Source: a virus
Length of the DNA: 64,000 nt
Direction: 5' to 3' (one strand)
Virus record (IMG/VR): IMGVR_UViG_3300037042_004723
Coordinates: 1-64,000 of that record
The notes below the pieces were generated by a model. It saw only the letters and a list, made by a program, of their open reading frames with translations, made no database searches and had not been told where the DNA came from. A program made the translations under genes and the position numbers. Shown here piece after piece: positions 20,345 through 63,821 of the stretch (positions are counted from its first letter, which is position 1; each line of letters starts with the position of its first letter).

Positions 20345-20794
20345 GCAGGGCATCTCATCACCCAACAAATCTATTGTCAATTTTCTAACCAGGCGCATCT
20401 CCAACACCCTTCCACGCAAGCGTTTGCGCGGGTCCACCAACAATACATAAATCGATCAGGTAAAGAGGCGCATTGTCCAATCAGGGCGATCACTTCCGGA
20501 CCATCTTACATAGATCGGTCATCCCCGAATTGTCCATCAACACTTACACAGGGCAAAATCGGCGGGGTAAATACTTTCACGTTAGTCAACCTCACAACTA
20601 CACTATTAGGAGAACCTCAGGAAAGCAGAACCCTAAGGAAGACTGAAGGGAGAACCTAAGAGATAACCCTCGCAGACTCGGGAGATTGCGGACTCGTTCT
20701 GCGAGGTTGCACAGGGGTAGAGAAAACTCATGAGTTTTCCAGAGGCAAATGGGCCTAGGACGAAGAGGGGAAGACACCCTGGAAAAGGGGAGTT

Positions 20795-20870
20795 GGGCTC
20801 CAAGAATAGGGGGGAGAATAGGAGAGTCGGGCTCCAAGAATAGGGGAGGGAAGGGCTCCAAGAATAGGGG
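20795..20870. repeat. Three 18-bp direct repeats GGGCTCCAAGAATAGGGG (iteron-like)
   Basis: Copies at 20795, 20829 and 20853 in a ~0.9-kb non-coding block. Confidence 0.85.
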
Positions 20871-21277
20871 AGTTGGGCTTGTCCGCGCGCCTCCCGCTGG
20901 GAGAAAAACACTTCCAAATGATCACGACGCAAGCGGCCTAGGTGACGGAAAACTCATGAGTTTTCCGGGTCGCCGCCTGAATTCTCCCGGGAGGGGTGAT
21001 CATGCAAGCGGCCACCCGCTGTACCAGGGGGGTGAGTTTTCCCAGTTCTACAGCTCCTGTGGTGGTGGAAAACTCAGGCCCCTATGGGAGTTTTCCGAAG
21101 CACCCCAGGGTGGAGTTTTCCACCTGGGGGCCCTATAGTGCGTGGGTCGAGTCGCCAAGATCTACACATTGACAATGAAGATCCAAAACAATCGCAGAAT
21201 AGCAGGTGATCTCCTGGTCGGTGCAAAATCGATCGGCGTTTTTGGACTTCTTTTTGCTGTGGTAGGACTTCTTGGCG

Positions 21278-21306
21278 TTGACAATCGTCACGCCACCACG
21301 TAATCG
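21278..21306 (+). promoter_or_regulatory. sigma70-like promoter of the RHH gene (leadered)
   Basis: TTGACA-17-TAATCG, then GAGGG before ATG 21329. Confidence 0.55.
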
Positions 21307-21328
21307 TTTTGAGGGAATCTAAATAGTT

Positions 21329-21793
21329 ATGGCAAGTAAGAAGACGCGAAGGAGCATCAGCATCACGGGGGGTGCGTACTGGGCGCTCAAGGAGCGTTGT
21401 GACAGGGATGGGGTGAGCATGAGCGGGGTAACGGAGAAGCTGGTGCGCGAGTTCCTGGGGCGGCCAGATCGTGATGAGGTTGCGGCTGCGGCTGCGGTGG
21501 CTCCCAAGGCTCCGCCCATGGATCCGCCCCGCCAGCATGTGAAGATGGTGCCGGTGAGGATCGTCGTCGCGCGGCCTCCGAAGTCAACGAAGCCCGCCAA
21601 GCCTGCCCACGCTCCTCCGGTCGTCGCGGCCAAGCCGGTGCTGCGTACCAAGCCGGTGCTGCGTGAGCCGGCTGACCGAGCGGAGCAGATCAGAGCCGCT
21701 GCCGCCCGCATCGCTGCCCGCAAGGCCGATGAGCCGGTCAAGAAGACCGGGGTGCCTGTGGCCGACCTGGCCTCGAAGATCTTCACGTTCTAG
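21329..21793 (+). CDS. Ribbon-helix-helix (CopG-like) DNA-binding protein with Pro/Ala/Lys-rich tail
   Basis: RRSISITGGAYWALKERCDRDGVSMSGVTEKLVREFL. Confidence 0.65.
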   Translation: MASKKTRRSISITGGAYWALKERCDRDGVSMSGVTEKLVREFLGRPDRDEVAAAAAVAPKAPPMDPPRQHVKMVPVRIVVARPPKSTKPAKPAHAPPVVAAKPVLRTKPVLREPADRAEQIRAAAARIAARKADEPVKKTGVPVADLASKIFTF

Positions 21794-22389
21794 AGCAGGT
21801 CGATGGCGGCGTTGATGCGGTCCTCCTTGAAGCTGAGGTACTGCGAGGTGGAGGTGATCCACTTGTGACCCAGCGCCCCCTGAAGCTGCTTGAGGTCACC
21901 GCCCAAGAGGTCGTACATCCGCTCGGCGTAGGTCTTCCTCATGCAGTGGGTGCCAAGGGTTCCCGTCAGCCCGATGGCGGCGAAGGCCGTATCGAACATC
22001 CGCCATACCTGGATGCGGCTGATGCGCTTTCGTGCGCGGCTACAGAACAAGGGGGTGTCGTCCTGGCATCCCCATACCTGGAGCGCCGACAGCCACGCCG
22101 ACACGGCAGCCTTGGCCTTGGCGTTGAGGCGGACGATTCTACCTTCGCCCTTGCCCTTCATGGCGCAGCGGCGAACGGCTACCGAGTCGACAATGGCCCC
22201 GTGCTGGAGTACGTCGCCCACCGTGAGGGACAGGAGTTCGGACACCCGGAAGCCGGTGTTGAGGCCGAGGGTGAAGAAGGTGGCGTTGCGGAGGCCGAGG
22301 CCCTGGCAGCTACGCTGGTCTTCGTCACTGGTAAGGTGCGCGAGGACTCGTTCTGTTTCAGACTTCGTGAGCGGCCGGCATCCCTTCAT
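21790..22389 (-). CDS. Tyrosine recombinase (catalytic domain only)
   Basis: TGFRVSELL (R), KGKG (K), THCMRK (HxxR), LGH, YL; CTGAAA-17-TGTAGG-6-ATG. Confidence 0.92.
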   Translation of the reverse strand: MKGCRPLTKSETERVLAHLTSDEDQRSCQGLGLRNATFFTLGLNTGFRVSELLSLTVGDVLQHGAIVDSVAVRRCAMKGKGEGRIVRLNAKAKAAVSAWLSALQVWGCQDDTPLFCSRARKRISRIQVWRMFDTAFAAIGLTGTLGTHCMRKTYAERMYDLLGGDLKQLQGALGHKWITSTSQYLSFKEDRINAAIDLL

Positions 22390-22430
22390 GCTCTACCTAC
22401 AACTGAGCGGCCGAGATTTTTCAGGGCATT

Positions 22431-22772: not shown

Positions 22773-22814
22773 GTAACGTTCTGCCCTATTGTTGACTATG
22801 CAGCCCAACGTCTA

Positions 22815-23336: not shown

Positions 23337-23667
23337 GCGTCTACTGTACGGTAAAGATCTTTACTGATCAATAGACAGATCTCTGTACCCCGGTAGACGC
23401 CGACTACCATCCGCGTGACGAGGTATGTCATGGCGTGGAGGGAAACGGAAAACTCATGAGTTTTCCGTTTCTGAATCTGAATTCAAACCGAACCGCCTCA
23501 AGGTGTGATGCGGTTAGGCTCGGCCGTCTGGTGAGCGGCTGACGTGGTGGGGGCCGGTAGTGCCCCGCCCGTACCGTGCCGGGTACCCAGAGTTTTCCCT
23601 CGGAGCCCCTGCCCCGCCTGACGCAACGCGCCGTGAAAATCCGGGCGGGCTCAGTTGTAGTAAGGGC

Positions 23668-23901: not shown

Positions 23902-24146
23902 GCAAAGTCACTCCCCGTAAGGCCAACCTCCGCACCCTGCACGCCGCTGGCACCTACTCCAACACCGAGGATTCTTGCGCCCGCCGGCTGGCCCGCGCAA
24001 TCCACGCTGCTGAGTCCACCTGCTGTTCCACGTCGTGGTCCGCGCAGGAGCGCGCCGAGACGTTTTTTAATGCCAACGGGCTGGCCCGTTCCCTCGATGC
24101 GTGCGCCCGGCTGGAAGCATTGCGGTTGCCCGATGCGGATAACTGA
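23898..24146 (+). CDS. Hypothetical protein (MSKVTPRK...)
   Basis: CTGAAA-17-TGTAGT-6-ATG. Confidence 0.75.
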   Translation: MSKVTPRKANLRTLHAAGTYSNTEDSCARRLARAIHAAESTCCSTSWSAQERAETFFNANGLARSLDACARLEALRLPDADN

Positions 24147-25695: not shown

Positions 25696-25760
25696 CCGTG
25701 GCCGGAGAGTTTTCCTGTGCGGTCGGTGAAAATTCAGGTCAGCTCAGTTGTAGTAGGGAC

Positions 25761-26266: not shown

Positions 26267-26347
26267 CACCCGGGCCGTCCCGGCCGTCAGGAGAGTTTTC
26301 TGCCACGGTCACCTGAAAATCCAGCCACCCTCAGTTGTAGTACCACC

Positions 26348-27953: not shown

Positions 27954-28024
27954 TCCTCGTGGCAGGAGTTTTCCGCCCGGGTAGAAAATTCGAAAGATTC
28001 CAAGGCCTCAGTTGTAGTTAGGTC

Positions 28025-30573: not shown

Positions 30574-30714
30574 TTCCGGGAGGCCGTGCCCAAGAACGGC
30601 CGGTAAGTGGTGGCAAGACATTAGACGTAGCTGGGAACGTCAAGCCATCCGCCTTCCTCTTTTCGGAAACGGAAAACTCAGGAGTTTTCCTGATTCACGC
30701 AAGCGCTTGCGCCG

Positions 30715-30827: not shown

Positions 30828-31023
30828 GACCTTACTACAACTGAGCCGGCCGATTTTTTCACCCCATAGGAGTTTTCCGCCACGCAGGATGCAGCGGTCC
30901 CGGGCGACTGTCACCCCCCCCCACCCACCTACTGCAACTGAGCCTCCGCAGACTTTCAGGACGGGCTTACGAAAAATCGACAAGCCTTTCGAAAATCGGA
31001 GCTAGCTGGATTGTAGTTAGGTC

Positions 31024-32680: not shown

Positions 32681-32762
32681 TCGTATATAGAGTTTTCTTC
32701 GGTATGGAGTTTTCTTCGCTGCGGGCGCTGAAAATTAAGGCGAGCCCAGTTGTAGTAGAGCC

Positions 32763-33623: not shown

Positions 33624-33693
33624 GGTCAGCGCGGCTGAGCCGCCATTCAGTCGGAGAAAACTCTAAGAGTTTTCTATGCGTATACGACGAGAG

Positions 33694-33739: not shown

Positions 33740-34150
33740 CTAGAACTCCTGCTCGGTGGCGGGTGCCGGCACGGCGGTCAGGGTGGGCTTGACCTTGGCC
33801 GGCTTGGCGGGCTCCGTGTCCTTGACCAGCCGACGGAGGCGGTCCAGGGCGTTCTTCGTCAGCCGGTACTTGCCGTCACCAACCTCGCTCTCGTGGGTGA
33901 CCCACTGGCTACGAACCAGGCGGCGGAGGGTGTTGCGGACCCGTGAGCATCCGCGCGCCCGTCCGCCCTGAATCTTGTGCCAGTTCAGGTCATCCATGAT
34001 CTCCTGAATGGTCCGCACAGGGCGACCCTCGGTTGCCAGCGAGGTGACCAGGAGCTGCTCGTTCTTGGTTAGCTCGTTGAAGGTTAGCTGAAGTGCGCCA
34101 GCGCGCTGTCCTTGCGAGGACGTGAATTCTGTCTTGGTTTGGGTGCTCAT
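33740..34150 (-). CDS. Winged-helix DNA-binding protein
   Basis: RVRNTLRRLVRSQWV...GDGKYRLT; paralogous to the N-terminal half of 35289-35990. Confidence 0.7.
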   Translation of the reverse strand: MSTQTKTEFTSSQGQRAGALQLTFNELTKNEQLLVTSLATEGRPVRTIQEIMDDLNWHKIQGGRARGCSRVRNTLRRLVRSQWVTHESEVGDGKYRLTKNALDRLRRLVKDTEPAKPAKVKPTLTAVPAPATEQEF

Positions 34151-35990: not shown

Positions 35991-36047
35991 GGGACGCGGC
36001 GCGCAAGCGCTTGCGCGGCTCGGAAAACTCTTAGAGTTTTCCGCTTC

Positions 36048-36126
36048 ACCTAAAGAAAAAAGCCCCGCCGACCAGGGTTATGCTGAACACACGACGGAAT
36101 TGCCGCTATTCACCCTGGCCGGCGGG
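36048..36126 (-). terminator. 15-bp stem, 33-nt loop, U-tract (terminator or 3' sRNA)
   Basis: CCCGCCGGCCAGGGU/ACCCUGGUCGGCGGG then GCUUUUUUCUUU on the minus strand. Confidence 0.7.
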
Positions 36127-36135: not shown

Positions 36136-36543
36136 CTACCTGCAATCGATGGGCGTGAACATCCCTGATGCGTATCGGCCGCTCTGATACTCAACCGACC
36201 GCCTGGGGACGACGACGAGGCGCTCCTCGCCGAACTCGCCGTTCATGGTCCCGATATCGATGCAGTAGTCGTAGTCGTATGCCTTGGGTGCGCGGGTGCG
36301 CAGGAGGGAGAACCGGTCGGTCACATCCTCGATGAGATGCGGCGGGTCGCCCACGAGGGAGCGCAGGCACTGCTCGGCGATGAAGAATTGCTTGCTCGTC
36401 GTGGACATGGGCACGGACACGTAGGCCCCATCGACCTTCGCCACGTTGGCCTTCTCGTGGAACCGGAGGGTAGCGTCCGGGCGGTCCTCGATCAGCTGCT
36501 CGTACTGCTCGGCGGGAATCTTGACTTGGATGATTCTGAACAT
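36136..36543 (-). CDS. Hypothetical protein
   Basis: Class-1 promoter 6 nt before ATG. Confidence 0.75.
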   Translation of the reverse strand: MFRIIQVKIPAEQYEQLIEDRPDATLRFHEKANVAKVDGAYVSVPMSTTSKQFFIAEQCLRSLVGDPPHLIEDVTDRFSLLRTRAPKAYDYDYCIDIGTMNGEFGEERLVVVPRRSVEYQSGRYASGMFTPIDCR

Positions 36544-36992: not shown

Positions 36993-37099
36993 GTAGTCGG
37001 CGGGCTTCGGCCCAGTCCGAAGAGAGAAAACTCTTAGAGTTTTCCGGCCTGTCGGCGGGCTTCGGGCCGGCAGCGCGGGCGGGTGCTAGCGGGCGACCC

Positions 37100-38465: not shown

Positions 38466-38593
38466 CAGCTTCGACGAGCTAGCCCGAGGCGCAAGCACGC
38501 TGCCAGCACGGGGCCGAGGGATAATGCAGCTGCTCGTCACCATGGTTCAGAAAACTCTAAGAGTTTTCCGACACACGGCTTACGCCGGGCTGG

Positions 38594-39410: not shown

Positions 39411-39530
39411 GGTCCTACTACAACTGAGGTCGCCGGTTTTTTCTCGGACCATGGTGCAGGTACGGCCCGGAAAACTCTAAGAGTTTTCTCAACCGCCTCA
39501 CAGGCTGAAGCGGTTTCCCGCCTCAGCCTC

Positions 39531-39704: not shown

Positions 39705-39951
39705 GGCCTTACTACAACTGAGCTAGGCCAACTTTTCAGCGAAGTTCTCGGCCAGCCGCTCACGCTTGCGAGCCGCCCAGCCCTCAGCGATGGAGCACGA
39801 CTCGGCACACGCCGCAATTCCCCGAGTGGTTTCCTTTTTGCCCTGAGAAAACTCTTAGAGTTTTCCGAATCCGCCGTCAGTCGATGCCCTCCCAGGCGTC
39901 CGTTGCTCTGGCGGGCAAGATCGCCCGTGGTGCGCTGCGAGGTCGCGTATT

Positions 39952-40870: not shown

Positions 40871-40939
40871 GCCCTTACTACAACTGAGCTAGCTAGCATT
40901 TTCGTTGAAAATTCAGGCTGGCTCAGTTGTAGTTACGTT

Positions 40940-41046
40940 GCTTGCTTGGCGCGTACGTGGACAGCCCTCAAGCCCGAAGTAGTCGTAGGCTGGCGACGAA
41001 AGGGTGAGAGCCACGTATGGGGGTTCGATTCCCCCTGGCATTACTA
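40940..41046 (+). ncRNA. Putative ncRNA with a tRNA-like T-arm
   Basis: TTGAAA-17-TGTAGT (40928), no ATG; UACGUGG/CCACGUA helix then GGGGG-UUCGAUU-CCCCC. Confidence 0.65.
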
Positions 41047-41205
41047 TTTGAAAATTGAAGTAGCGGTTCAGTCCGTCATAAAAGGCACCCTCCCCAGCCG
41101 GTACTCAGGCCATGTCATGGGAGCTACTGACCTTCAATTTTCTGTTTCAAGTGGAAAACTCTAAGAGTTTTCTCCCCGTCACCTGGCCCGAAGGCCGGGG
41201 CTGCA

Positions 41206-41736
41206 CTAGCCCAGCAGCTGGGCCAGTGCAGCCTTCGCCCGGCTGGCCATGGCCACGGTCACGCCCACCTCACGGGCCGCATCGGTCCACGACTGGCTAC
41301 GCATGAACGCTTCAACAACGGCACGGTGAACCGGCTTGAGCGACGCAACGGCTGCGCGAACCCCCGCAATCTCCTGGCCCCTCACCATGTCGAGGTGCGG
41401 ATCACTGTCGGCGGGCAACGCCTCAGCCACGGGGATGCTGCGCCCGTCGTCGCTCACGACCTGGGGCATCTGAGACTCGAACCTGTGATGAGCCAAGCGC
41501 AGCCAGTTGTGTGCGCGGTACTTCGCAAAGCACGTGAAGTGTGACCGGGCCGAACCCTTGCCCGCATCGAAGGTACGCACGCCGTAGTCGAGCGCCTCGA
41601 CCATGACGCGGCTCATGCACTCGTCGAGGTCGCTCTCGGTGGAGTAGCGCGACCGGCGCAGCACGTTAGCCACGGTGGCGCGCATGGCGGGAAGGACGGT
41701 TAGAATCTCGGAGTGAATCGCTTTGGTGTTCAGCAT
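41206..41736 (-). CDS. ECF-like sigma-70 factor, paralog 1
   Basis: FDAGKGSARSHF...AHNWLR (region 2) and C-terminal HTH; TTGACA-17-TATGAT-7-ATG places the start at MLNTK. Confidence 0.75.
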   Translation of the reverse strand: MLNTKAIHSEILTVLPAMRATVANVLRRSRYSTESDLDECMSRVMVEALDYGVRTFDAGKGSARSHFTCFAKYRAHNWLRLAHHRFESQMPQVVSDDGRSIPVAEALPADSDPHLDMVRGQEIAGVRAAVASLKPVHRAVVEAFMRSQSWTDAAREVGVTVAMASRAKAALAQLLG

Positions 41737-41857
41737 GGTAAGAATCATATACTAAGGGATTGTCAATGTCAACACCTAAGATGGCCATACTGAAGATCTT
41801 TTTGAGAAAACTCAATCAAAGCAATGCAAGAGCGGGCAACCCTTGCGTTACTTCTGA

Positions 41858-42640: not shown

Positions 42641-42708
42641 GTCTCTACTACAACTGGACTAGCTGAGATTTTCGCGAAATTGCATGGGCCCTCAGTTGTA
42701 GTCTATGC

Positions 42709-42918
42709 ATGAGGAAACAAATATCAGTCCACACGGCAACACCTGGGGATCTCGTTCGTCTCGCGCGTGAGAATGGATACGAGATTCTCCCCGGCAGGGG
42801 AAAGGGATCACACATCGTCCTAACCAAAGCAGGTTCACCAAATGTCACAATCCCAGGCGGAAAGCATGTCGGCCGCAACGTGGTCCGCCGCATGATAAAG
42901 GTAATCATGGCAGCATGA
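42709..42918 (+). CDS. hicA: HicA-family toxin-like protein (no HicB seen)
   Basis: GY....RGKGSHIVLTK.G...VTIP...VGRNVVRRMIK; class-1 promoter 6 nt before ATG. Confidence 0.75.
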   Translation: MRKQISVHTATPGDLVRLARENGYEILPGRGKGSHIVLTKAGSPNVTIPGGKHVGRNVVRRMIKVIMAA

Positions 42919-42989
42919 AGCAAGGCAAGGGGGGCTCGGCATCCCCCGAGCCACACACTCGGAAAACTCTAAGAGTTTTCTCTCCTGCC

Positions 42990-43575: not shown

Positions 43576-43647
43576 CCGGTCGGGCTACGGCCTTGGCCCG
43601 GTAAAACTCTAGACGCCCGGAGGGCGCAAGCGCCGACGCCAGCCGGC

Positions 43648-44221: not shown

Positions 44222-44311
44222 GGCTCGGGGCTACGGCCCACTGGAAGAAAACTCTAAGAGTTTTCTGAACCACCTCACAGGCTGAGGCGGTTGCCTGTCA
44301 GATTCCGACGG

Positions 44312-45152: not shown

Positions 45153-45202
45153 GGCTCAAGAAAACTCTAAGAGTTTTCCGGTTGAGGGCCGAAGCCCAGC
45201 GG

Positions 45203-46412: not shown

Positions 46413-46483
46413 CGTCGAGAGTTTTCCGAACGACACTGCATCGATTGCCTGAAAATCCCAGGTGGCCCAGTTGTAGTAGAACC

Positions 46484-46705: not shown

Positions 46706-46812
46706 GCGGCTGGCCTTCGGGCTCGCAGGCGTTGGAAAACTCCTATGGTTATTCGGCCTAGAGTTTTCCGCCCTGGGCGGCCGGGGTCGGGCCCGGCCGC
46801 CTCCTGTGGGGG

Positions 46813-47995: not shown

Positions 47996-48077
47996 CCAAG
48001 AAGGAGGAGGGGGCGCGCAAGCGCTTGCGTCGATAGAAAACTCTTAGAGTTTTCCGTTAAGGGCCTTAGCCCGAGGG

Positions 48078-48642: not shown

Positions 48643-48721
48643 GCAGCGGAAAACTCTAAGAGTTTTCTAAGCCGCGCTGGGCTTGGTAGCCCGTCACCCT
48701 TGGTAGGGCTTGCGCTGTCGC

Positions 48722-49679: not shown

Positions 49680-49796
49680 GCGGACCGGCGGGGTTCGTTG
49701 CCTCGCAGGCTTGGAAAACTCTGGCCCATAGGGAGTTTTCTTGGCCGCGCCCGCCGGGCGGCCAAGGCTACGGCTTGTCCTTTACCTCGGCCACGG

Positions 49797-50486: not shown

Positions 50487-50551
50487 GGCTTTGCGTGTAG
50501 AAGAAAACTCTTAGAGTTTTCTTAACCGCACCCGCTTGCGCGGGCTCGGGC

Positions 50552-51460: not shown

Positions 51461-51596
51461 GGCGTAACTACAACTGAGCTTATCTGGATTTTCATGTAAT
51501 CGACAGACGCCCGCGCCGCTTGATGCGTGACGGCCCTGAACATAGAAAACTCTTAGAGTTTTCCGATGCCATCACGGCGCGGTGCGCCTTGGGCCC

Positions 51597-52120: not shown

Positions 52121-52289
52121 TTTGCTACTACACCTGGGCTTGCTCAGATTTTCAGGCAATCGACAGACGCCTGATCAGCGCACTTCTGACAGAGAAAACT
52201 CTAAGAGTTTTCCGACGCACGGCAGTAACGGGGAGCCCGCCGCCCCCCCCCTTCCCGGCCGCACTCGCCGGGTGGGCTAGCCGTTATTT

Positions 52290-52499: not shown

Positions 52500-52637
52500 G
52501 TACCTACTACAACTGGGCTAGCCTGGATTTTCAGGCAATCGACCGAGCGTATTTCTGACACTCGGGACGCCCACGGCCAGAGAAAACTCTAAGAGTTTTC
52601 TTAACCCCGAAGGGCGGCGAGCCCGGCCCGGCCCCGT

Positions 52638-53159
52638 CTAGCGGAGCGCCTTCAGCTTGGCGGCGATTTCCCGGCGGCGGCGGGTGGCCGTGGCCGGCGA
52701 CCATCCCACCAGTGCGCCCGCCTCGGTCTGGGTCATGCCCCGGTTGATTGCCAGGATGAACGCGCGCTCGCCCTCGGGGAGCGTGGCAAGCGCCATGGCA
52801 AGCCACTGGCCTTCCTCGGTGCGCAGGGCATCCGCCCGACCGTCAGAGCCCGGAAGGCCGTCCACAATCCGGTCCATCCCTTCCGCCCGGTCTGAATCGC
52901 CGTCCGACTTCTTGGTCACCACGTCGTGGGTGCGGTAGCCCTCCGACTTGACGTGGTTGCGGGCAACGTTGCCCGCGAGCTTGGCGCAGAACGTCGCCAC
53001 CTTGCCACGGGTGGGGTCGAAAACCTCGCCCTTTTCCAGGCACTCAACAACGGAATTATTAAGGATATCCTCCTCGTCGCCGCGCTTGCCCACGGCGCGC
53101 AGGATGGCGACGGTCATAGCGGTGAGAACTTCGGTGGTCATGTCGTTGCGGTTGAGCAT
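52638..53159 (-). CDS. ECF-like sigma-70 factor, paralog 2
   Basis: FDPTRGKVATF...ARNHVK; LPEGER...MTQTEAGALVGWSPAT. Confidence 0.8.
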   Translation of the reverse strand: MLNRNDMTTEVLTAMTVAILRAVGKRGDEEDILNNSVVECLEKGEVFDPTRGKVATFCAKLAGNVARNHVKSEGYRTHDVVTKKSDGDSDRAEGMDRIVDGLPGSDGRADALRTEEGQWLAMALATLPEGERAFILAINRGMTQTEAGALVGWSPATATRRRREIAAKLKALR

Positions 53160-53371
53160 TCATCAGTTGTAGCCTATCATGAGCCGATAGTCAAGGTATC
53201 TTTTGTCATGGTATGCAGATACTTGGCACGATCATTGACAATGCATTGGTATGACCGGAAAACTCTACGGCGCAAGCGTAAGAGTTTTCCTGGTGCGCCA
53301 AGCGGCGCGGTGCGCCAAGCGGGGCCAGAACGCGCCACGCCAACCCCCGTGGGGGCCGCGCCGGGCGTGGC

Positions 53372-53662: not shown

Positions 53663-53802
53663 CTGTATCCACTACAACTGTGCTTTCCGGGATTTTCGTA
53701 CAATCGACATCGCGCCCCGGCAGCTCGAAATCTGACAGGCGACCGAGAAAACTCTTAGAGTTTTCCTGGCCCGGCAAGAGCCGGGGCCCCCGGCCCCGCC
53801 TC

Positions 53803-54306
53803 CTAGCGGAGCGCCGCCAGCTTCTCGGCGATTGCCTTGCGGCGGCGGGTGGAGGTGGCCGGGGACCATCCGACCAGCGCGCCCGCCTCGGTCTGGCCCA
53901 TGCCCTGATTGATTGCCCGGATGAAGGCCCGTTCCTCGTCGGTGAGCGTGGCGAGCGCCATGGCAAGCCACTGGCCTTCCTCGGTGCGCAGGGCATCGGC
54001 CCGGCCATCGTCGCCCGGAAGGCCATCCACGATGCGCGTGGGCTCGCCTTCCTCGCCCTTGGTCACCACGTCATGCGAGCGGTATCCCTCAGCCTTGACG
54101 TGGTTACGGGCCACGTTGCCCGCGAGCTTGGCGCAGAACGTCGCCACCTTGCCCCGGGCGGCATCGAACGCCTCGCCCTTCTCCAGGCACTCCACCACGG
54201 AATCGTTGAGGATATCCTCAAGGTCGGCACGCTTGCCGACAGCGCGGACAATGGCGACGGTCATGGCGGTGAGGACTGCGGAGGTCATGTCGGTGTGGTT
54301 CAGCAT
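53803..54306 (-). CDS. ECF-like sigma-70 factor, paralog 3
   Basis: Closely similar to paralog 2; TTGCAT-17-TAAGGT-7-ATG. Confidence 0.8.
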   Translation of the reverse strand: MLNHTDMTSAVLTAMTVAIVRAVGKRADLEDILNDSVVECLEKGEAFDAARGKVATFCAKLAGNVARNHVKAEGYRSHDVVTKGEEGEPTRIVDGLPGDDGRADALRTEEGQWLAMALATLTDEERAFIRAINQGMGQTEAGALVGWSPATSTRRRKAIAEKLAALR

Positions 54307-54466
54307 GGGATTGACCTTAAGCTATATCTTATCTCAATGCAACAACAATCGACAGGGATCTGCACTTATTTTTCCGGGCCAGCTTCCGGTGGCTTACGGA
54401 AAACTCTAAACGTCTGACAGTGCATGGAGTTTTCCGGTTGCCCGGTGGCGCGGTGCGCCCGGTGGC

Positions 54467-54794: not shown

Positions 54795-54871
54795 GGAAAA
54801 CTCTAATTAGGTTAGAGCTATTAGAGTTTTCTTGACCACAACGGTCGGCGCGGACCGTCGTGGTCTTGCGC

Positions 54872-55315: not shown

Positions 55316-55490
55316 TGATAGACAGTACACCTATTGACGTGCATTGTCAAGGTATCTTTTGCCTATCAATGTCGAATGTCTCGCAATGGGCGATAGAAAA
55401 CTCTAATGGGCTTTAGGCTCCCAATGATTACAGAGTTTTCTATTGGACAGTTGGCGGGCTCGGTGTCCCGCTGTCCTTTAGAACTGTCCC

Positions 55491-55844: not shown

Positions 55845-55993
55845 TCCCCTTTATCGCACGGACCGAGGTGCATTGTCAAGCATGTAATGCCATGCAATGC
55901 AGATAGTTGTACGGAAAACTCTAAGCTCTGACAGTGGGGTGGAGTTTTCTGATGCGCTTGCGGCGCGCGGTCTGCGGCCTGCCCGGCGGGGCC

Positions 55994-56278: not shown

Positions 56279-56419
56279 GTACAGACCTTAGCAGGTCTTG
56301 CGTGTATTGTCAATCGCATAATGCCATTCAATGCAGATAGTTAGGCGGAAAACTCTAACCTATAAGCTGTTAAAGGGAGTTTTCTTAGCGTGCGTCGGCC
56401 GGGCGAACCCGGCGGGCTG

Positions 56420-56641: not shown

Positions 56642-56843
56642 TTAATGACCTTAGCAGGTGATGGTTGCATTGTCAATGCATTGAATGCGTGACAATGATG
56701 AATTGCTTCGAGTGGCGGCGTATCCTGCCCCTACTACAATTGTGCTCGCCTGAATTTTCATCATATCAATGCAGGGGAAAACTCTAAGGTCTGACAGCAG
56801 GTAGAGTTTTCTTAACGCCTGACCGGGCGAACCCGGCGGGGCC

Positions 56844-57337: not shown

Positions 57338-57465
57338 GCTATCACTACAACTGTGCTCGGTCGGATTTTCAGGTGATTTTATCGAAGACCAGGCCGGGCT
57401 AGACCAGGCCGGAAAACTCTTAGAGTTTTCTTGATGCAGCATCGGCGCGGTGCGCCGGGCCCCGC

Positions 57466-57852: not shown

Positions 57853-58030
57853 TCATCAGTTGTAGCATGGTTACCTTGACAATGCAACAACTATCTACTA
57901 ACAATCGACTGTCAAGATCTGCGGATCCTGTTAGGAAAACTCGGGTTGGCGCAACGCAGTGCGTGGCCATATGAGAGTTTTCCAAACCCACGGGCGAGAT
58001 CGGGCGGGGTGCCCGGTCGCCCCGGTCGGG

Positions 58031-58588
58031 CTACTCGTCGCCGTCCTCGTCGCCGTCCTCGCCGGACACAGCGGCCTTGAGCGCGGCGAGGAGCGCGGCC
58101 CGCTTGCGCGTGGCCTTGACGGCGTTCCAGCCGAACGCCTTGCCAGCGTCCCCGATGGACTCGCCCCGGATGAGGGCCCGGACGAAGGCCCGGTCGGTCT
58201 CGTCCTGGATCTCGGAGATCGCCAGGGCCAGATCTTGAGCCTCCATCGAACGGGCCACCTCGACCCGCCCATCGGCACCGGGCAGGGACTCGACGATCAT
58301 CTCGCCGCCATTCTCGCCCTCATCGTCGCTCGCCGTCACCACGTCATGCGAGCGGTAGCCCTCGGCCTTCATGTGGTTGCGGGCCGTGTTCCCGGCGATC
58401 TTGCAGCAGAAGTTGCTGAAGTTGCCACGGGCCGCGTCGAAGCTCTCGATCTGCTCCATGACGCGCACGCACGAATCGTTCAGGATGTCGTTCAGGTCGG
58501 CATTCTTGCCAACGGCGCGGACGATCGCGCCCGTCATGGATCCGATGGTGGTGGTGGTGATGATGGTCGGGACCGTGTGATTCAGCAT
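58031..58588 (-). CDS. ECF-like sigma-70 factor, paralog 4
   Basis: FDAARGNFSNF...ARNHMK; HTH IGDAGKAFGWNAVKATR. Confidence 0.8.
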   Translation of the reverse strand: MLNHTVPTIITTTTIGSMTGAIVRAVGKNADLNDILNDSCVRVMEQIESFDAARGNFSNFCCKIAGNTARNHMKAEGYRSHDVVTASDDEGENGGEMIVESLPGADGRVEVARSMEAQDLALAISEIQDETDRAFVRALIRGESIGDAGKAFGWNAVKATRKRAALLAALKAAVSGEDGDEDGDE

Positions 58589-58732
58589 TCATCAGTTGTA
58601 GCCTATCAAGAGCCGATAGTCAAGGTATCTTTTGCCATGCAATGCAGATAGTTTGCACTGTCCTTAACAATGCATTAACCTGACCGGAAAACTCTAAACC
58701 ACCATTGAGGGCACATGGCCTTTAGAGTTTTC
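58589..58732 (-). repeat. ~140-bp class-2 promoter cassette; near-identical copies before 53159, 59089, 59613, 60169 and 62532
   Basis: Shared gatagtcaaggtatcttttgccatgcaatgcagatag...caatgca...gaccggaaaactc. Confidence 0.85.
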
Positions 58733-59089: not shown

Positions 59090-59268
59090 TCATCAGTTGT
59101 AGCCTATCAAGAGCCGATAGTCAATGTATCTTTTGCCTTGCTATGCAGATAGTTGGCACGATCCTTGACAATGCACTGGTCAGACCGGAAAACTCTGTTT
59201 AACCATTAAGGCACATGGCCTTTAGAGTTTTCTCCCAGCACTGGCGGCCCCGGCGGCGGGCCGGGGGG

Positions 59269-59613: not shown

Positions 59614-59791
59614 CCATCAGTTGTAGCCTATCAAGAGCCGATAGTCAAGGTATCTTTTGCCATGCAATACAGATAGTTGGCACACATCTTGACAATGCAT
59701 TGGTCAGACCGGAAAACTCTATTTAGTCATTAAGCATTAGCTTAAGTGGAGTTTTCCTGTCTGGAGTCGGCGCGGTGCGCCGGCCCGGATC

Positions 59792-60169: not shown

Positions 60170-60347
60170 CTGAGAACCATCATGGACTATCATCGCCCGA
60201 TTGTCAAGGTATCTTTTGCCATGCAATGCAGATAGTTTGCGCGTACCTGACAATGCATTTACTTTAACCGGAAAACTCCATTAATGGCCTGGTAATGGAG
60301 TTTTCTTGACAGGCCTAGTCGGCGCCGGAGGGCGCCCGGCCCTGAGG

Positions 60348-60923
60348 CTAGATCTTGTCGGCCAGAGCGGCCGTGATCGAGCGGTAGCGGCGCGTCGTGG
60401 TCGCGGGTGACCAGCCCAAGAGGGCGCCGGCCTCGCACTGGCCCATGCCCCCGGCCATCGCATCCAGGAACGTCTGCGAGTCAGCGTCAAGCGCGAGCAT
60501 GGCATCGGCCAGAGCCTTGCGCTCGAAGTAGCGCACCATGTCAGCGGCGCCATCCACGCCCACGAGCGTATCGACGAGCGCGACCTCGGAGTCATCGTCG
60601 CCGAGGTTCGTCTCGGAGTCGTGGTTACGGTTCGCGTGAGCCTTGCGCCAGTTGCGCGCAGCGTTCGCAGCGATGCGGCACGCCCACGAGACGATCGACC
60701 CCTTCGACCAGTCGAACGACTCGGCGTGCTCCATCATGCTCACGAGCGCATCCTGCACAACGTCAGACGTTGCGCTCGTCTCGCCGATGGTACGCTCGAC
60801 GGTGCGCGCCATGGTCTTGAACAGGTCGGGGTTGCCGATCTGGCTCATGACGTCCAAGCGAGTCTCGCTCGACGCGCCCGTGGAAGTGAAACCGTTGTGA
60901 CCGATGTTCGTGTGATTCACCAT
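60348..60923 (-). CDS. ECF-like sigma-70 factor, paralog 5
   Basis: DVVQDALV...FDWSKGSIVSWACRIAANAARNWRK; MGQCEAGALLGWSPATTTRR. Confidence 0.85.
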   Translation of the reverse strand: MVNHTNIGHNGFTSTGASSETRLDVMSQIGNPDLFKTMARTVERTIGETSATSDVVQDALVSMMEHAESFDWSKGSIVSWACRIAANAARNWRKAHANRNHDSETNLGDDDSEVALVDTLVGVDGAADMVRYFERKALADAMLALDADSQTFLDAMAGGMGQCEAGALLGWSPATTTRRYRSITAALADKI

Positions 60924-61169
60924 ACATAGCATGGCTATCTTTACAATGATACATCAATCGACTAACAAATCACTGTCAAGATCTGTGGATCCTGTTAGGA
61001 AAACTCTATGGTGCGAGGCCATATGGAGTTTTCCGCTTAAGCCAGTTGGCCCGGCGGGGCCGGTCGGGCTACTTCTTGAAGGTGGCCGTAGCCAGATCGA
61101 GCGTGATGCACTCGCCGGTCGCCGGATCTACGAAGTAGACCGGGGCCGTGGGGCGCTTGGCCCGCTTCA

Positions 61170-61481: not shown

Positions 61482-61657
61482 TCACCATACATAGCATGGC
61501 TATCTTGACAATGCAACAACTATCTAACAACAATCGACTGTCAAGATCTGTGGATCCTGTTAGTGATAAGCGGAAAACTCGCTTTAGCTTTTAAGCGGGG
61601 CTTAGGCGGAGTTTTCCCGATGCCCCGGTGGCGGGATCCGCCCCCCGACCCGGTCGC

Positions 61658-61930
61658 CTACCGGAAGGCGGCGGGGTGCGGGTAGGTCTGGCGGAACCCG
61701 TACTCGACCTCCCGGAGGTCATCCTCGGCGACCTCGAAGGCCGCAAAGGCCGCGTCCATGGCATCGGACGCCTCACCCTCGCCGTCCGTCCCGTTCGCCT
61801 TGCGCATGGCCTTGCAGGCCGCTTCGAGCGCACGGGCCGCGCCGTCCCGCAGGTCCAGGAAGCGGGCAACCGTGGCCGGGTCGGCCACGAACATCTCAAC
61901 CGCGCGCTGGGCATTCCGTTTGTTCAGCAT
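61658..61930 (-). CDS. Hypothetical helical protein (MLNKR...)
   Basis: TTGACT-17-TAAGGT-5-ATG. Confidence 0.7.
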   Translation of the reverse strand: MLNKRNAQRAVEMFVADPATVARFLDLRDGAARALEAACKAMRKANGTDGEGEASDAMDAAFAAFEVAEDDLREVEYGFRQTYPHPAAFR

Positions 61931-62118
61931 GCCTAACCTTAACCCAGGACTTAAGCTAAGTCAATCACCGAATGCGACGCAATGACGATTTATTTAGGTG
62001 GCCTTTAACAAGAAAACTCCCGCGCAAGCGCTTGCGTTGGAGTTTTCCTGATGTGCTAGCGGCCCCGGCGGGGGCGGGGCGCTTTTCCGGGCTAGCGGCC
62101 CCGGCGGGGGCGAGGGAG

Positions 62119-62532
62119 CTAGCGATCCCAGCGACCGCCGATCCGGGGGCCGTCGTCGCCGGACTGCCACGGGAGCGCGCGGGGCGGGAGCGATGCCGCT
62201 CGGACCCGCTCGGCCTCAATCTCGCGCCACTGGCGCGCCTCGCGCGCTTCGTCCGTCTCGCCCGTGTCCCACCACTCCTTCTCCGGCGGGGCAGCCGCTA
62301 GGGCTGCTGCCTTAGCAGCTTCGCGCGCGTCCCGCTCGGCGGAGAGCCGCACGTCGATCGCGTCCCGCTCGGCGCGGATCGCGGCGAGCTTGCGCTCCTT
62401 GATCGTCATGGGAGGCGCCTCCACAGTGAAGCTCGCCGGAGCCTCCGGCTCCAACGCGAGCGGGGCCACGGGCCCCACGGGGGCCGGGGAGAGGGAAGCG
62501 AGCGCTGCAAAGGACTTGAAGGTCTTGCTCAT
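62119..62532 (-). CDS. Hypothetical Ala/Arg/Glu-rich protein ending GPRIGGRWDR
   Basis: TTGACA-17-TACATT-7-ATG. Confidence 0.7.
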   Translation of the reverse strand: MSKTFKSFAALASLSPAPVGPVAPLALEPEAPASFTVEAPPMTIKERKLAAIRAERDAIDVRLSAERDAREAAKAAALAAAPPEKEWWDTGETDEAREARQWREIEAERVRAASLPPRALPWQSGDDGPRIGGRWDR

Positions 62533-62728
62533 GTCAATGAATGTAGCCTATCAAGAGCCCATTGTCAAGGTATCCTTTGCCATGCAATGCAGATAGTTTG
62601 CGCGTACCTGACAATGCATTAACCTGACCGGAAAACTCTATTTAACCATTAAGCATTAGCTTAAAAGGAGTTTTCCTGTCTGGGGTCGGCGTGGCCGACT
62701 AGCGCTAGTCGGCCACGCTGCCGGGGCG

Positions 62729-63055
62729 CTACACCCGGTAGAAGCCCCGGCACCCAACCACGGCCCCACCCTCGTCGCGCACGAGCGCGCCGGGGGTCAG
62801 CAGGTCCGCAGTGGACCGGCCCGCCTCGCGCGCGGCGCTCGCCGCGAGCGCGCTCACGACGAGCCAAACCCCGCTCTGGGGCGCGGGGAGACCGACCGGC
62901 TCCCCGCGCGTGACGCGCGACGTCGGGACGCCACAGACGTCCTCCGTGGTCTCGGTTGTCTCGGTGGCACGGGCGACCCCCTCCGAGGGGAGGGTGCGGG
63001 TGGAGCCGTCCGCGAGGACGACCGCGACGATGTGCGGGGTGAGGTTCTTGAGCAT
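62729..63055 (-). CDS. Conserved viral hypothetical protein (NLTPH...VS...VRD..G...GC)
   Basis: Recalled motif pattern; TTGACA-17-TATGGT-6-ATG. Confidence 0.75.
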   Translation of the reverse strand: MLKNLTPHIVAVVLADGSTRTLPSEGVARATETTETTEDVCGVPTSRVTRGEPVGLPAPQSGVWLVVSALAASAAREAGRSTADLLTPGALVRDEGGAVVGCRGFYRV

Positions 63056-63090
63056 GATAAGACCATAGCAGTTCATCACTGCATTGTCAA
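63056..63090 (-). promoter_or_regulatory. Representative class-2 (sigma70-like) leaderless promoter (about 19 copies)
   Basis: TTGACA (63090-85) - 17 - TATGGT (63067-62) - 6 - ATG. Confidence 0.85.
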
Positions 63091-63221
63091 TGTATATTTT
63101 GCCATGCAATGGGGAATATTTAACCGACCTTGACAACTGCCTTAGTGCAACGAGAAAACTCCCTTTAACAGGCCATTAATAGAGTTTTCCGCTTGGCCGG
63201 TTAGCCCGGCGGGCCGGTCGG

Positions 63222-63632
63222 CTACTCGTAGCGGACGGTGAGGCTCGCCGCGTAGGGAGCGGGCGAGAATACGAGGGTGAGCGCGGTAACGTCGCACGTG
63301 GGGACGTCGCGGGGGATCTTGGCGAGCAGTAGCTCGGCAACGTGGCGTGCGAGTCTCTCGCACGAGAGCGCGGTGCCACGCTCGGCGATCCGGTCCATGT
63401 ACAGGCCCACCATGGCCTGGTCGAACAGGAAGCCCCGGTCGTCCAGGCGCGGCGCGCACGTCACGGTCAGGTCCCACCGGACCGGGATCGCCTTGCGGCC
63501 CCCGTCGACGTTCACAAGGGCCCCAGCGGGGCCACAGTGGTTCGGGCCCGAGACAACGAAATTCGAGATCCCCGCGCGCTGCAGCGTGAAGCTGGCGAGC
63601 TTGAGCGCGGGGCGGGCGGTGTGATTCAGCAT
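63222..63632 (-). CDS. Possible QueD/6-PTPS-like T-fold protein (MLNHT...)
   Basis: LTVTC..RLDDRGFLFDQ and SCERLARHV resemble QueD G..vDF and E.lA motifs; His triad not evident. Confidence 0.45.
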   Translation of the reverse strand: MLNHTARPALKLASFTLQRAGISNFVVSGPNHCGPAGALVNVDGGRKAIPVRWDLTVTCAPRLDDRGFLFDQAMVGLYMDRIAERGTALSCERLARHVAELLLAKIPRDVPTCDVTALTLVFSPAPYAASLTVRYE

Positions 63633-63821
63633 TCATCAGTGATAGCACAGCTACCTTGACAATGATACAACAATCGAACAACAATCGACTGTCAAGGTAA
63701 GGCAATCCTGTCAGGAAAACTCTATGGTGCAAGGCCCTTAATGGAGTTTTCCGGTTAGGCCAGTGGCCCGGCGGGGCCGGGGGCTAGCGGTTGGCCGGTC
63801 GGGCCGCTTACCCGGCGGGGG

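Follow-up and report, generated by a model that had tools for sequence, protein, structure and literature searches.

Invariant palindromic sites at the 3' ends of small transcription units in one region of a phage genome

The DNA analysed here (the window) comprises bases 1-64000 of a 197,279-bp IMG/VR phage record. The phage encodes the T4-type proteins gp20, gp21 and gp23. An exact scan for arm A followed by arm B, GAAAACTC-N(2-32)-GAGTTTTC, found 43 pairs in the window, spanning 20722 to 63751. This is the number counted by hand in an earlier, sequence-only reading; 100 dinucleotide-preserving shuffles of the window held no exact pair. The scan also returned the spacer classes of that reading, i.e. 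2 nt (four sites), 3 nt (18), 11-12 nt (two), 16 nt (one), 18 nt (one), 19-21 nt (ten) and 28-32 nt (seven), and the dominance of short spacers up to 53.8 kb and of long ones at 53-64 kb. All 18 of the 3-nt spacers in the window are TAA or TTA. The full sites are listed without strand, as located by the exact pair scan, with junction types taken from the gene calls:

20722..20739, spacer 2 (AT), left boundary cluster
20948..20965, spacer 2 (AT), left boundary cluster
21068..21095, spacer 12, left boundary cluster
23448..23465, spacer 2 (AT)
30672..30689, spacer 2 (AG), tandem plus-strand junction
33656..33674, spacer 3, convergent junction
36023..36041, spacer 3, convergent junction
37026..37044, spacer 3, convergent junction
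38550..38568, spacer 3, convergent junction
39470..39488, spacer 3, tandem minus junction
39847..39865, spacer 3, tandem minus junction
41154..41172, spacer 3, tandem minus junction
42962..42980, spacer 3, convergent junction
44247..44265, spacer 3, convergent junction
45160..45178, spacer 3, convergent junction
46735..46768, spacer 18, convergent junction
48036..48054, spacer 3, convergent junction
48649..48667, spacer 3, tandem minus junction
49714..49740, spacer 11, convergent junction
50503..50521, spacer 3, convergent junction
51545..51563, spacer 3, tandem minus junction
52194..52212, spacer 3, tandem minus junction
52582..52600, spacer 3, tandem minus junction
53258..53289, spacer 16, tandem minus junction
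53747..53765, spacer 3, tandem minus junction
54399..54434, spacer 20, tandem minus junction
54796..54831, spacer 20, tandem minus junction
55396..55440, spacer 29, tandem minus junction
55914..55949, spacer 20, tandem minus junction
56348..56384, spacer 21, tandem minus junction
56777..56811, spacer 19, tandem minus junction
57412..57430, spacer 3, tandem minus junction
57935..57982, spacer 32, tandem minus junction
58687..58732, spacer 30, tandem minus junction
59188..59232, spacer 29, tandem minus junction
59712..59756, spacer 29, tandem minus junction
60271..60305, spacer 19, tandem minus junction
60999..61033, spacer 19, tandem minus junction
61573..61616, spacer 28, tandem minus junction
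62012..62047, spacer 20, holding a CGCAAGCGCTTGCG palindrome (also folding)
62631..62675, spacer 29, tandem minus junction
63154..63189, spacer 20, tandem minus junction
63715..63751, spacer 21, tandem minus junction

The full record contains 44 exact pairs, the additional one at 64181-64225, and a further pair with a single mismatch lies beyond the window at 65109-65153. All 45 copies of GAAAACTC and 56 copies of GAGTTTTC in the record fall within 20,722-65,153, and neither 8-mer was found in the remaining ~152 kb. The first arm of the record starts at 20,722, in line with the claimed absence of complete copies from the first 20 kb. None of the one-mismatch variants of the 8-mers was enriched in the region, except the class-1 -35-like GAAAATTC. 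Among the matches listed in a scan of prokaryotic genome contigs, there were only scattered single ones, and within this set the motif is not a host-genome repeat. A single base with constrained identity adjoins each arm (R-GAAAACTC...GAGTTTTC-Y, 88 of 88 in this genome). The flanking R and Y are kept per arm (75/77 and 77/77) and show no mutual complementarity (32 observed vs 40.9 expected).

Besides the 43 full pairs, the window holds 12 solitary arms. Solitary and degenerate arms from the arm scan, with additional sources in brackets, are:

21034..21041, plus strand, lone GAGTTTTC arm, boundary cluster
21113..21120, plus strand, lone GAGTTTTC arm, boundary cluster
23590..23597, plus strand, lone arm, class-1 promoter downstream
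25707..25714, plus strand, lone sense arm, stop codon on one side and class-1 promoter on the other
26293..26300, plus strand, lone sense arm, stop codon on one side and class-1 promoter on the other
27966..27973, plus strand, lone sense arm, stop codon on one side and class-1 promoter on the other
30870..30877, plus strand, lone arm, orientation ambiguous because of minus-strand promoters nearby
32690..32714, plus strand, two direct GAGTTTTC arms with a 9 nt gap, class-1 promoter downstream (also arm-order count)
41806..41813, minus strand, lone arm reading GAGTTTTC in the sense (minus) direction, flanked by two minus genes
43602..43609, minus strand, degenerate arm GAGTTTTA, at the only convergent junction without an exact site (variant scan and unit-end count)
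46419..46426, plus strand, lone arm, class-1 promoter downstream

About 21 of 28 solitary arms have their T-tract downstream in the sense direction, and 12 of 20 are preceded by a hairpin whose end lies 0-6 nt 5' of the T-tract. In some relatives a solitary GAAAACTC in the sense direction directly follows a canonical terminator, which counts against a boundary or terminator role.

The left edge of the region and one example of an intergenic module are organised as follows:

20399..21328, no strand, non-coding left boundary with 3 full sites, 2 solitary arms and three GGGCTCCAAGAATAGGGGAG copies (arm scan and relatives)
21329..21793, plus strand, putative ribbon-helix-helix (RHH) protein gene directly 3' of the boundary cluster (weak fold match)
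21790..22389, minus strand, 199-aa Xer-like tyrosine recombinase, catalytic domain only (profile match below every curated cut-off)
59090..59268, minus strand, module of stop codon, GC hairpin, site, TTGACT-N17 promoter and leaderless ATG (module alignment)

The arms of the left boundary cluster stand in B-B, B-A and A-A order and no coding unit ends there, which likewise speaks against a boundary or terminator role. Two relatives, G002 and G003, carry a comparable arm cluster at the equivalent place, and one CCAAGAATAGGGGAG copy is kept in G003. An orthologue of the RHH gene occupies the equivalent place in all three phages. The fold match is not significant and the beta-strand is diverged in G002; the putative RHH protein is one candidate reader of the arms. 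The Xer-like gene lies 12 kb from the sites in G002 and was not found in the G003 contig (80% complete); neither a serine recombinase nor a Y1/RAYT transposase is present. The Xer-like recombinase is an accessory gene, not tied to the sites.

Site placement was judged against our own ORF and codon-bias calls. The claimed intergenic position holds for all sites with respect to confident gene calls; those at 20948 and 21068 fall within a call of low score (20749-21138), probably no real gene. Eleven sites lie at convergent junctions, 29 at tandem junctions and four in the non-coding left boundary or in divergent regions. In three diverged phages, a sense-oriented GAGTTTTC follows 54/69, 29/35 and 26/29 non-operonic unit ends; about 80-90% of the transcription units have a site at their 3' end, and the layout is equal in three further metagenome relatives. 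Each site is preceded by the gene's private GC hairpin (median -19 kcal/mol) and, in tandem arrays, is followed next by a conserved leaderless promoter, with the downstream start codon 59 to 98 nt from the site. Sites never overlap promoters, and none was found in the 68-72-bp divergent promoter regions. The promoters here are leaderless, without a Shine-Dalgarno sequence, and form two classes. Phage ECF-like sigma factors probably act on one of these; class-1 promoters, like the motif, are restricted to the same 45 kb. The sites do bound gene modules, as had been proposed, and these modules are reshuffled among relatives.

The arms are invariant and the spacers vary, as first noted from the window: across the lineage, 104 short-spacer sites are perfect, one is mismatched and none is a compensatory variant. 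Identical arms occur in three diverged relatives (about 70% nucleotide identity) and in about 29 metagenome fragments. The phages that share them can be aligned over no more than 14-27% of their length, with about 70% identity, and differ in their class-1 promoters. In the lineage, 102 of 148 sites are 18-19-bp palindromes and a third have arms 4-34 nt apart. At orthologous junctions, one phage has a short site where another has a long site or single arm, and the spacer halves look mosaic among paralogous sites. Most of the region's gene content is private to one phage, and inversions are present (G003 has the segment 41172-42962 inverted). Of the homology break points, 23% lie at most 25 nt from an arm (10% at random) and 29% at promoter cores (8% at random); one clear indel is flanked by two promoter modules, not by sites.

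Among 158 neighbouring arm pairs, 150 are A-then-B and three B-then-A. Every site has the constant order of A-tract, short GC stem, loop, GC stem and T-tract. Short sites fold weakly (-4.0 to -6.4 kcal/mol) and fail the usual rules for intrinsic terminators, since a 3-bp stem and four U are left if the U-tract is unpaired. Long-spacer versions fold at -10 to -20 kcal/mol, and the long spacers show mild self-complementarity (mean z -0.8, n=30). Canonical terminators of a hairpin and a T-run show no enrichment there (16 vs 14.6 expected for the region).

The spacer lengths had also been read as quantised in steps of about 9 nt, suggestive of phased binding sites. Once the 30 long spacers are collapsed into 15 sequence families, their lengths show no significant clustering (p=0.30) and no period stands out, and the gaps are occupied by spacers of 4, 6, 9, 24 and 25 nt elsewhere in the lineage. 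Furthermore, steps of ~9 nt would each go out of phase on B-DNA by about 50 degrees, and the type of site (short, long or half) changes between orthologous junctions. A phased protein array is not supported, because the classes are sequence families, the gaps are filled in relatives and the phase on B-DNA is not kept. A likeness to integron attC sites is not supported either: the sole tyrosine recombinase is the Xer-like catalytic domain described above, below curated cut-offs and not found in the G003 contig, serine recombinases and Y1/RAYT transposases are absent, and the cassettes have their own promoters on both strands. The position data are best fitted by the terminator option of the sequence-only reading.

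The region is best read as the hyperplastic early/middle array of an uncultured giant phage with a T4-type head. With a probability only slightly better than even (about 0.55), the palindromes are the PeSL-type boundary/terminator core of its cassettes, their arms being read as sequence by a conserved trans-acting factor. Each small gene or gene pair would form its own unit of leaderless promoter, ORF, GC-rich 3' hairpin and R-GAAAACTC-(loop)-GAGTTTTC-Y. Because the sites have the layout of two-way terminators, their likely job would be to stop or insulate transcription from either side; position and layout together suggest termination. Each 9-nt arm may be read singly, as sequence, by the putative factor, since the arms are invariant, lack covariation, also work singly and follow a purine/pyrimidine rule per arm, features that hairpin stability alone does not explain. 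The factor would most likely be a phage DNA-binding protein that blocks RNA polymerase or aids its release. As a side effect, the identical elements and the equally conserved promoters would mark points of cassette exchange, inversion, gain and loss.

Plain intrinsic two-way terminators, i.e. an RNA hairpin and U4 acting on the host RNA polymerase with arms identical by descent and repeated cassette copying, would account for the prevailing arm order, the location at unit ends and the folding of long-spacer sites, and known PeSL stem-loops likewise have a lineage-specific consensus. Such terminators need no fixed sequence, yet perfect arms outnumber mismatched ones 104 to 1, with no compensation, in lineages about 30% diverged; in addition, the ninth position obeys a rule per arm and not of pairing, the short sites are far too weak and solitary arms are exactly conserved, which makes this account improbable. 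It is also unlikely that the sites are operators at which a global DNA-binding protein of the phage silences the entire early region or sets its timing, with control of expression and not termination as its main job; stoperators, KorB OB sites and the phiC31 conserved inverted repeats would be comparable. The invariant sequence, the ordinary operator size of the 18-19-bp palindromes, the existence of half sites, the confinement of motif and class-1 promoters to the same 45 kb and the arm clusters that, in all three phages, lie at the left edge upstream of the putative RHH gene argue for operators. However, the sites lie at 3' ends without promoter overlap, at a variable distance from the start codon and outside the divergent promoter regions; 11 stand between convergent genes, where there is no promoter, and arm separation and spacer class are variable, even at orthologous sites.

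It is very unlikely that the palindromes serve a dedicated recombinase or nuclease that mobilises cassettes by excision, insertion and inversion at them, as in a phage 'integron' or shufflon. Conservative site-specific exchange would be expected to preserve exact repeats, entire segments with sites at their ends differ in orientation or place among relatives (e.g. 41172-42962), and both the mosaic spacer halves and the excess of break points near arms agree with it. Nonetheless, break points are at least as frequent at promoter cores, the clear indel is bounded by promoter modules, no recombinase is common to all three phages, a 2-3-nt centre is too short as a crossover region for a tyrosine recombinase, and promoters lie inside the cassettes, with both strands in use. 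Hardly probable at all is an RNA signal other than termination, in which an RNA-binding protein or nuclease binds or cuts the 3' hairpin or the GAGUUUUCY word and thereby sets mRNA stability or processing. The motif does occur in the 3' untranslated part of most units, mostly in sense orientation and behind a stable GC hairpin, but arms also stand in several orientations in the non-coding boundary cluster, sense-oriented GAAAACTC singles exist and the word is buried in the stem of full sites.

Among known systems, integron attC sites resemble those described here in being inverted repeats, imperfect or variable, whose outer parts are conserved and whose centre varies; each cassette has one, 3' of the ORF. 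In contrast, IntI, attI and a common promoter are absent here, the arms do not match RYYYAAC/GTTRRRY, the cassettes carry their own promoters on both strands and minimal sites measure 18-19 bp. Inverted Neisseria DNA-uptake sequences and REP elements are repeat families that double as terminators; they are host-chromosome repeats with a second use (DNA uptake and RAYT transposition, respectively). These families and two-way intrinsic terminators share with our sites an exact short word in inverted pairs 3' of genes and the succession of A-tract, stem and T-tract, whereas the word studied here is not a repeat among the matches listed for prokaryotic genomes and a RAYT gene is absent.

The stoperators of the Cluster A mycobacteriophages L5 and Bxb1 block elongating RNA polymerase (PMC9283540, PMC6550527). 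Both systems have dozens of short, nearly identical sites between closely spaced genes, which are read as an asymmetric unit and show a biased orientation relative to transcription. Stoperators, however, are 13-bp single sites distributed genome-wide and recognised by a temperate phage's immunity repressor, whereas here 9-nt units, mostly in head-to-head pairs, are restricted to one region and placed at unit ends, and a homologue of the repressor was not identified.

PeSLs are modules of a stem-loop terminator and an early promoter that flank ORFans in the hyperplastic regions of T4-like phages, and one PeSL stem-loop terminated transcription in vivo (PMC2839356). The comparison covered the T4-like pairs RB49/phi1, T4/PST and KVP40/nt-1 (Arbiol et al. 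2010, PMC2839356; Comeau et al. 2014, PMC4122927). Unlike PeSLs, the arms described here show strict invariance (104:1) in phages that differ by about 30%, also occur singly and, at 11 convergent junctions, stand without a promoter; the loops, 2-34 nt long, are unrelated in sequence, there are two classes of promoter, both leaderless, each gene keeps a second, private GC hairpin, and termination is deduced from position and layout. In both systems a composite intergenic stem-loop followed by a conserved promoter flanks small orphan genes in a hyperplastic region, and the phage has head genes of T4 type. The stem-loop consensus is lineage-specific in both, and that of nt-1/KVP40, A3-4G3-loop-C3T3-4 (PMC4122927), has in nt-1 the same layout as GAAAA-CTC-loop-GAG-TTTTC here. 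Relatives differ, in either case, by the gain, loss and swapping of cassettes beside the modules.

The exact pattern GAAAACTC-N(2-32)-GAGTTTTC, an inverted repeat of a left arm (A) and a right arm (B), occurs 43 times in the window versus none across 100 shuffles; the scan matched, spacer class by spacer class, the hand count of 43 pairs made in a sequence-only reading of this DNA. Beyond the window, the same 197,279-bp IMG/VR phage record (IMGVR_UViG_3300037042_004723) has a further exact site (64181) and an imperfect one with a single mismatch (65109). All copies of both arms (45/45 of GAAAACTC and 56/56 of GAGTTTTC) fall within 20,722-65,153 of the record, which bears out the earlier observation that the first 20 kb lacks a complete copy, and the remaining 152 kb contains zero copies of either arm. 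Arm variants with one mismatch were found at background level only in a scan of the record. A purine (R) before GAAAACTC and a pyrimidine (Y) after GAGTTTTC, present in 88/88 arms of this genome, extend the true arm length to 9 nt.

Exact-pattern scans led to three IMG/VR records, two of which represent one phage: G001 and G003 are 99.998% identical, and comparison of this close pair yielded no indels. The two diverged relatives, G002 (199.6 kb, 50.8% GC) and G003 (175 kb, 56.6% GC), align to only 14-27% of the length of this genome with ~69-71% identity. Both carry 16-17 full sites each with arms identical to those of this phage, in a single 22-25-kb region at the same relative position and at 83-90% of its unit ends. 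About 29 metagenome fragments added 71 sites, and the same gene and site layout was present in three of them. Fragments from Ga0307379, Ga0315283 and Ga0210406 demonstrate the existence of close relatives. Over all sequences, the short-spacer sites comprise 104 perfect copies, one copy with a single mismatch and no compensatory change. Further IMG/VR contigs that share this core were rejected as an unrelated repeat family: their GC content is ~40%, and a perfect palindrome of roughly 60 nt surrounds the core. Contigs L058-L104 (records IMGVR_UViG_3300042907_002604, 3300042937_001586 and 3300042937_001620) contain many copies of that palindrome, with the centre GAAAACTC-NNN-GAGTTTTC and the flanks TTAAATTTAAG and CTTAAATTTAA. 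A provirus of 72.8% GC (L094, IMGVR_UViG_3300041964_000181) has two copies of CCCCAC-GAAAACTC-NNN-GAGTTTTC-GTGGGG 4.2 kb apart; it shares the core only, in a longer GC-clamped hairpin and a very different genome.

Based on gene calls from a simple ORF and codon-bias script, all sites lie outside confident genes; the boundary-cluster sites 20948 and 21068 are within a low-scoring call that is probably no gene. Convergent junctions carry 11 sites, tandem junctions 29 (28/29 within the minus-strand array, 39-64 kb) and the non-coding left edge or divergent regions four, in agreement with the proposal that the sites are intergenic and bound the gene modules. In the sense direction, a tandem junction consists of a stop codon, a private GC-rich hairpin, a linker of 0-12 nt, the site, a conserved promoter and the ATG, an order visible on the minus strand at 53-64 kb and elsewhere. 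The private hairpins have a median of -19 kcal/mol and a mean z of -1.9 versus shuffles, and the position of the promoter predicts an mRNA start at the ATG or a few bases off. Of the 69 non-operonic unit ends in the region, 54 are followed by GAGTTTTC in sense orientation; consensus hairpin plus T-run terminators are not enriched there (16 observed vs 14.6 expected).

Two promoter classes were recognized in the region. Class 1 reads TGAAAATC-N13-CAGTTGTAGTA, and class 2 consists of TTGACA/T-N17 and a -10 box immediately upstream of the ATG. The class-1 core AGTTGTAG (62 copies) is restricted to 20-65 kb like the arms, and the class-1 -35 box varies among phages (TGAAAATC, TGAAATTC, TGAAAAA) while the arms are constant. 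The 9-mers CAGTTGTAG, directly upstream of class-1 starts, and CTACAACTG, directly upstream of many class-2 starts, are exact reverse complements of each other. The cassette array also includes five paralogous small ECF-type sigma-factor genes, one unit each, with matches below or near the family cut-offs. These and other elements of the stretch are as follows.

259-681 (-), homologue of translation initiation factor IF3 by cluster match with IF3_N + IF3_C; the early genes of this genome are leaderless; uninformative for host assignment
961-3804 (-), SNF2-type helicase split by an intein that carries a homing-endonuclease domain (Hint + LAGLIDADG)
9019-10701 (-), second protein with Hint, intein-splicing and LAGLIDADG domains
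20399..21328, non-coding left boundary cluster of arms
20560-20900, left-edge non-coding stretch with three GGGCTCCAAGAATAGGGGAG copies and purine-rich GAGAACCT-like repeats; parts conserved in G003 (CCAAGAATAGGGGAGG, GTAAATACTTTCAC); may represent an origin or encode a non-coding RNA
21329..21793 (+), putative ribbon-helix-helix protein (RHH candidate)
21790-22389, Xer-like tyrosine recombinase
36000-36020, 48013-48030, 30697-30712 and 62021-62036, plus intergenic places beyond the window, second repeated palindrome GCGCAAGCGCTTGCGC, beside or inside sites; also in G002 and G003; elsewhere in the genome its halves rank among the commonest intergenic 8-mers (7 regions)
36048-36126, hairpin in the untranslated stretch 3' of gene 36136-36543, conserved among the three phages (orthologous places at ~65.9 kb in G002 and ~44.7 kb in G003)
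40900-41100, intergenic, tRNA-like T-arm (GGAATCGAACCCCC, opposite strand); ARAGORN made zero tRNA calls across the window
41206-41748, 52638-53159, 53803-54306, 58031-58588 and 60348-60923, all (-), ECF-type sigma-factor genes
52507-52530 and 59096-59115, examples of CAGTTGTAG/CTACAACTG at class-1 and class-2 promoters

The loop of the 36048-36126 hairpin is nearly identical among the phages (GGCAATTCCGTCGTGTGTTCAGCA) and its stem sequences differ; unlike the other private hairpins, it looks from this comparison like a selected RNA element.

The spacer classes described in the sequence-only reading are real within the window, but they do not reflect a physical quantisation: the 148 pooled sites form a dominant 2-3-nt class (102 sites) and a broad tail reaching 34 nt, and spacers of 4, 6, 9, 24 and 25 nt occur in other members of the lineage. 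The 30 long spacers belong to 15 sequence families and, once these are collapsed, length clustering is not significant (p=0.30) and no period is favoured. Phased binding sites for a dimeric or bridging protein, proposed from the step of about 9 nt between classes, are thus not supported, and a 9-nt step itself loses helical phase, as centre-to-centre distances of ~10.5, 19.5, 28 and 37.5 bp leave a single face of B-DNA. A protein filament extending over weak arm-like boxes in the spacers was likewise rejected (mean best match 4.13 of 8 vs 4.63 in shuffles). Long spacers are mildly self-complementary (mean z -0.8), and the short loops are A/T-rich with TAA/TTA or ATA/TAT predominating. On the 3' side of orthologous genes, a 2-3-nt site in one phage corresponds to a site of 19-34 nt or to a lone arm in another.

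Invariance without covariation, the purine or pyrimidine of each arm, exact solitary arms and boundary clusters of mixed order all favour a reading of each arm by its sequence over mere pairing with its partner. The flanking purine (75/77) and pyrimidine (77/77) are conserved arm by arm and are not mutually complementary, with 32 complementary pairs vs 40.9 expected and A opposite C at 21 sites. About 30 exact arms are solitary (half sites, without a partner); the pyrimidine is kept by 31/31 solitary GAGTTTTC and the purine by 7/9 solitary GAAAACTC. The left-boundary clusters of the three phages contain B-B, B-A and A-A orders. A polarity within full sites derived from the flanking base was discarded as inconsistent among phages.

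Adjacent arms follow the order A-then-B 150 times and B-then-A three times, so that a transcript from either side would comprise an A-tract, stem, loop, stem and U-tract; judged from its sequence, the site has the layout of a two-way terminator. A hairpin is located directly 5' of the T-tract in 12/20 solitary arms. Several long-spacer sites satisfy the canonical rule for intrinsic terminators (a GC-rich stem of at least 5 bp, then a U-rich tract), and the short sites fail it: their predicted folding is weak (-4.0 to -6.4 kcal/mol), and the stem of the 66 short sites in the three phages reaches 8 bp only by pairing of the four U with the A-tract and is 3 bp long without it. Since the short sites are too weak for the usual rules and the arms are invariant, we infer a helper or roadblock factor at the sites. 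Tentatively, and with a probability of only about 0.3, the 9-nt arm would be the word recognized by a dedicated factor that is shared throughout the lineage, and the ends of nearly all early units would be programmed, factor-dependent stops or insulators. Such a factor, acting either as a roadblock or as a termination factor that assists the hairpin, would read R-GAAAACTC arm by arm, and the arm word could be a handle for cassette exchange too. We know of no described phage-wide, sequence-addressed terminator system of this kind.

As an arm reader, the RHH candidate is a lead only. All three phages encode, just downstream of the boundary cluster, this small protein with an N-terminal strand-helix-helix, and its strand residues diverge in G002. 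The predicted model (pLDDT 70.5) gave a Foldseek list topped by RHH proteins (NikR, ParG, CopG and Arc), all with E>2. Genes conserved in all three phages include 21329 (the RHH candidate), 24178, 28049, 30256, 31024, 33354, 33740, 35289, 36136, 44654 and 49098. Of ten proteins searched against PHROGs, six had no hits, including the RHH candidate and the products of 33740, 35289 and 36136, and the hits of the other four contained nothing suggestive of nucleic-acid binding. Pfam gave no hits for the RHH candidate, 33740 and 36136 and only a sub-threshold Rio2_N match for 35289, and a PDB sequence search of the candidate readers returned no significant match. A Psu-like match of 33740-34150 (E=0.34) is not evidence.

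Several other functions of the arms were weighed. A host repeat of the DNA-uptake, Chi or REP type was not indicated: in a scan of one genome per species from 185,579 prokaryote species, the matches listed (at least 120 stretches) were scattered at about chance level with no enriched genome among them. A role as -35 boxes of the ECF type, for promoters that face inward or outward, was rejected: apart from the R/Y position no fixed-distance conservation was found, and the class-1 -35 box changes between phages while the arms stay. A T4-like late promoter word was likewise rejected, as none of the arms lies in any late-gene region; the T4 late box TATAAATA itself is absent except for one reverse-strand copy.

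The likeness to integron attC sites, suggested earlier for hairpins with a variable loop, is not supported. Integron cassettes are promoterless, share one orientation and depend on a common promoter, whereas the units here have a promoter each and lie on both strands; the attC core (RYYYAAC ... GTTRRRY) is missing, the arms being GAAAACTC / GAGTTTTC, and no IntI-type integrase is present. The sole tyrosine recombinase (199 aa) has an Xer-like catalytic domain below every curated cut-off and scores 28 bits with integron-integrase models against a cut-off of 265; in G002 its gene is 12 kb away from the array, and a search of the G003 contig (estimated 80% complete) did not find it. Neither a serine recombinase nor a Y1/RAYT transposase is present, PF01797 being absent from 3/3 phage records, and the sites thereby differ from REP/RAYT systems, with which a Y1 transposase gene is associated. 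Stoperators are asymmetric, oriented with transcription and act singly. Here, the solitary arms are biased in orientation (a T-tract sense-downstream in about 21 vs 7 antisense), yet most arms are paired, and no counterpart of the phage immunity repressor that binds stoperators was identified in this phage.

The best reading of the sites, on the comparisons made here, is a unit-boundary element (terminator or insulator) of the PeSL type with an unusually strict arm-wise sequence requirement, and this strictness points to a specific factor that would read the arms. PeSLs (promoter-early stem-loops) are modules of a stem-loop terminator and an early promoter around orphan genes in hyperplastic regions of T4-like phages, and mediate cassette shuffling and the formation of mini-circles (PMC2839356). 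The present phage has T4-type head genes (Pfam Gp23, 2e-69; T4 portal; prohead protease) and, similarly, a hyperplastic, orphan-rich region, in which most genes are without orthologue in the two relatives while the rest of the genome is collinear. A stem-loop with a conserved promoter module occurs at the 29 tandem junctions; in contrast to PeSLs, the 11 convergent sites are a stem-loop only. The layout of the sites is that of the nt-1/KVP40 stem-loops, with the consensus A3-4G3-loop-C3T3-4 (PMC4122927).

Homology ended within 25 nt of an arm in 23% of cases vs 10% at random and within 25 nt of a promoter core in 29% vs 8% (a small sample of 35 non-independent ends, from fragments 78-91% identical); break points are therefore at least as enriched at promoter cores as at arms. 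An indel at 36.6-38.2 kb, present here and missing from G003 and the fragments L229, L234 and L237, is bordered by two homologous divergent-promoter modules and not by sites. From these promoter-near break points and this promoter-bounded indel, exchange appears to draw on the whole of the conserved intergenic sequence, in line with the proposal made for PeSLs; a dedicated site is not indicated.

In large phages, cassettes of the PeSL type are regarded as drivers of accessory-gene turnover, and they have stem-loops of fixed sequence. The present lineage is the most extreme case of a fixed word that we found, with one 9-nt word in well over 100 perfect copies among phages diverged by ~30%. The arms are kept even where the phages changed their promoters, and an invariant word without covariation and with half sites points to a specific reader, a proposal that is directly testable. 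Should the signal prove active in a laboratory host, the modules, each with a leaderless promoter, an ORF, a private hairpin and the universal stop, would provide naturally occurring insulated expression parts. Elements of the PeSL kind are already described; what sets the present variant apart as new is its strict arm word, together with its half sites and leaderless units.
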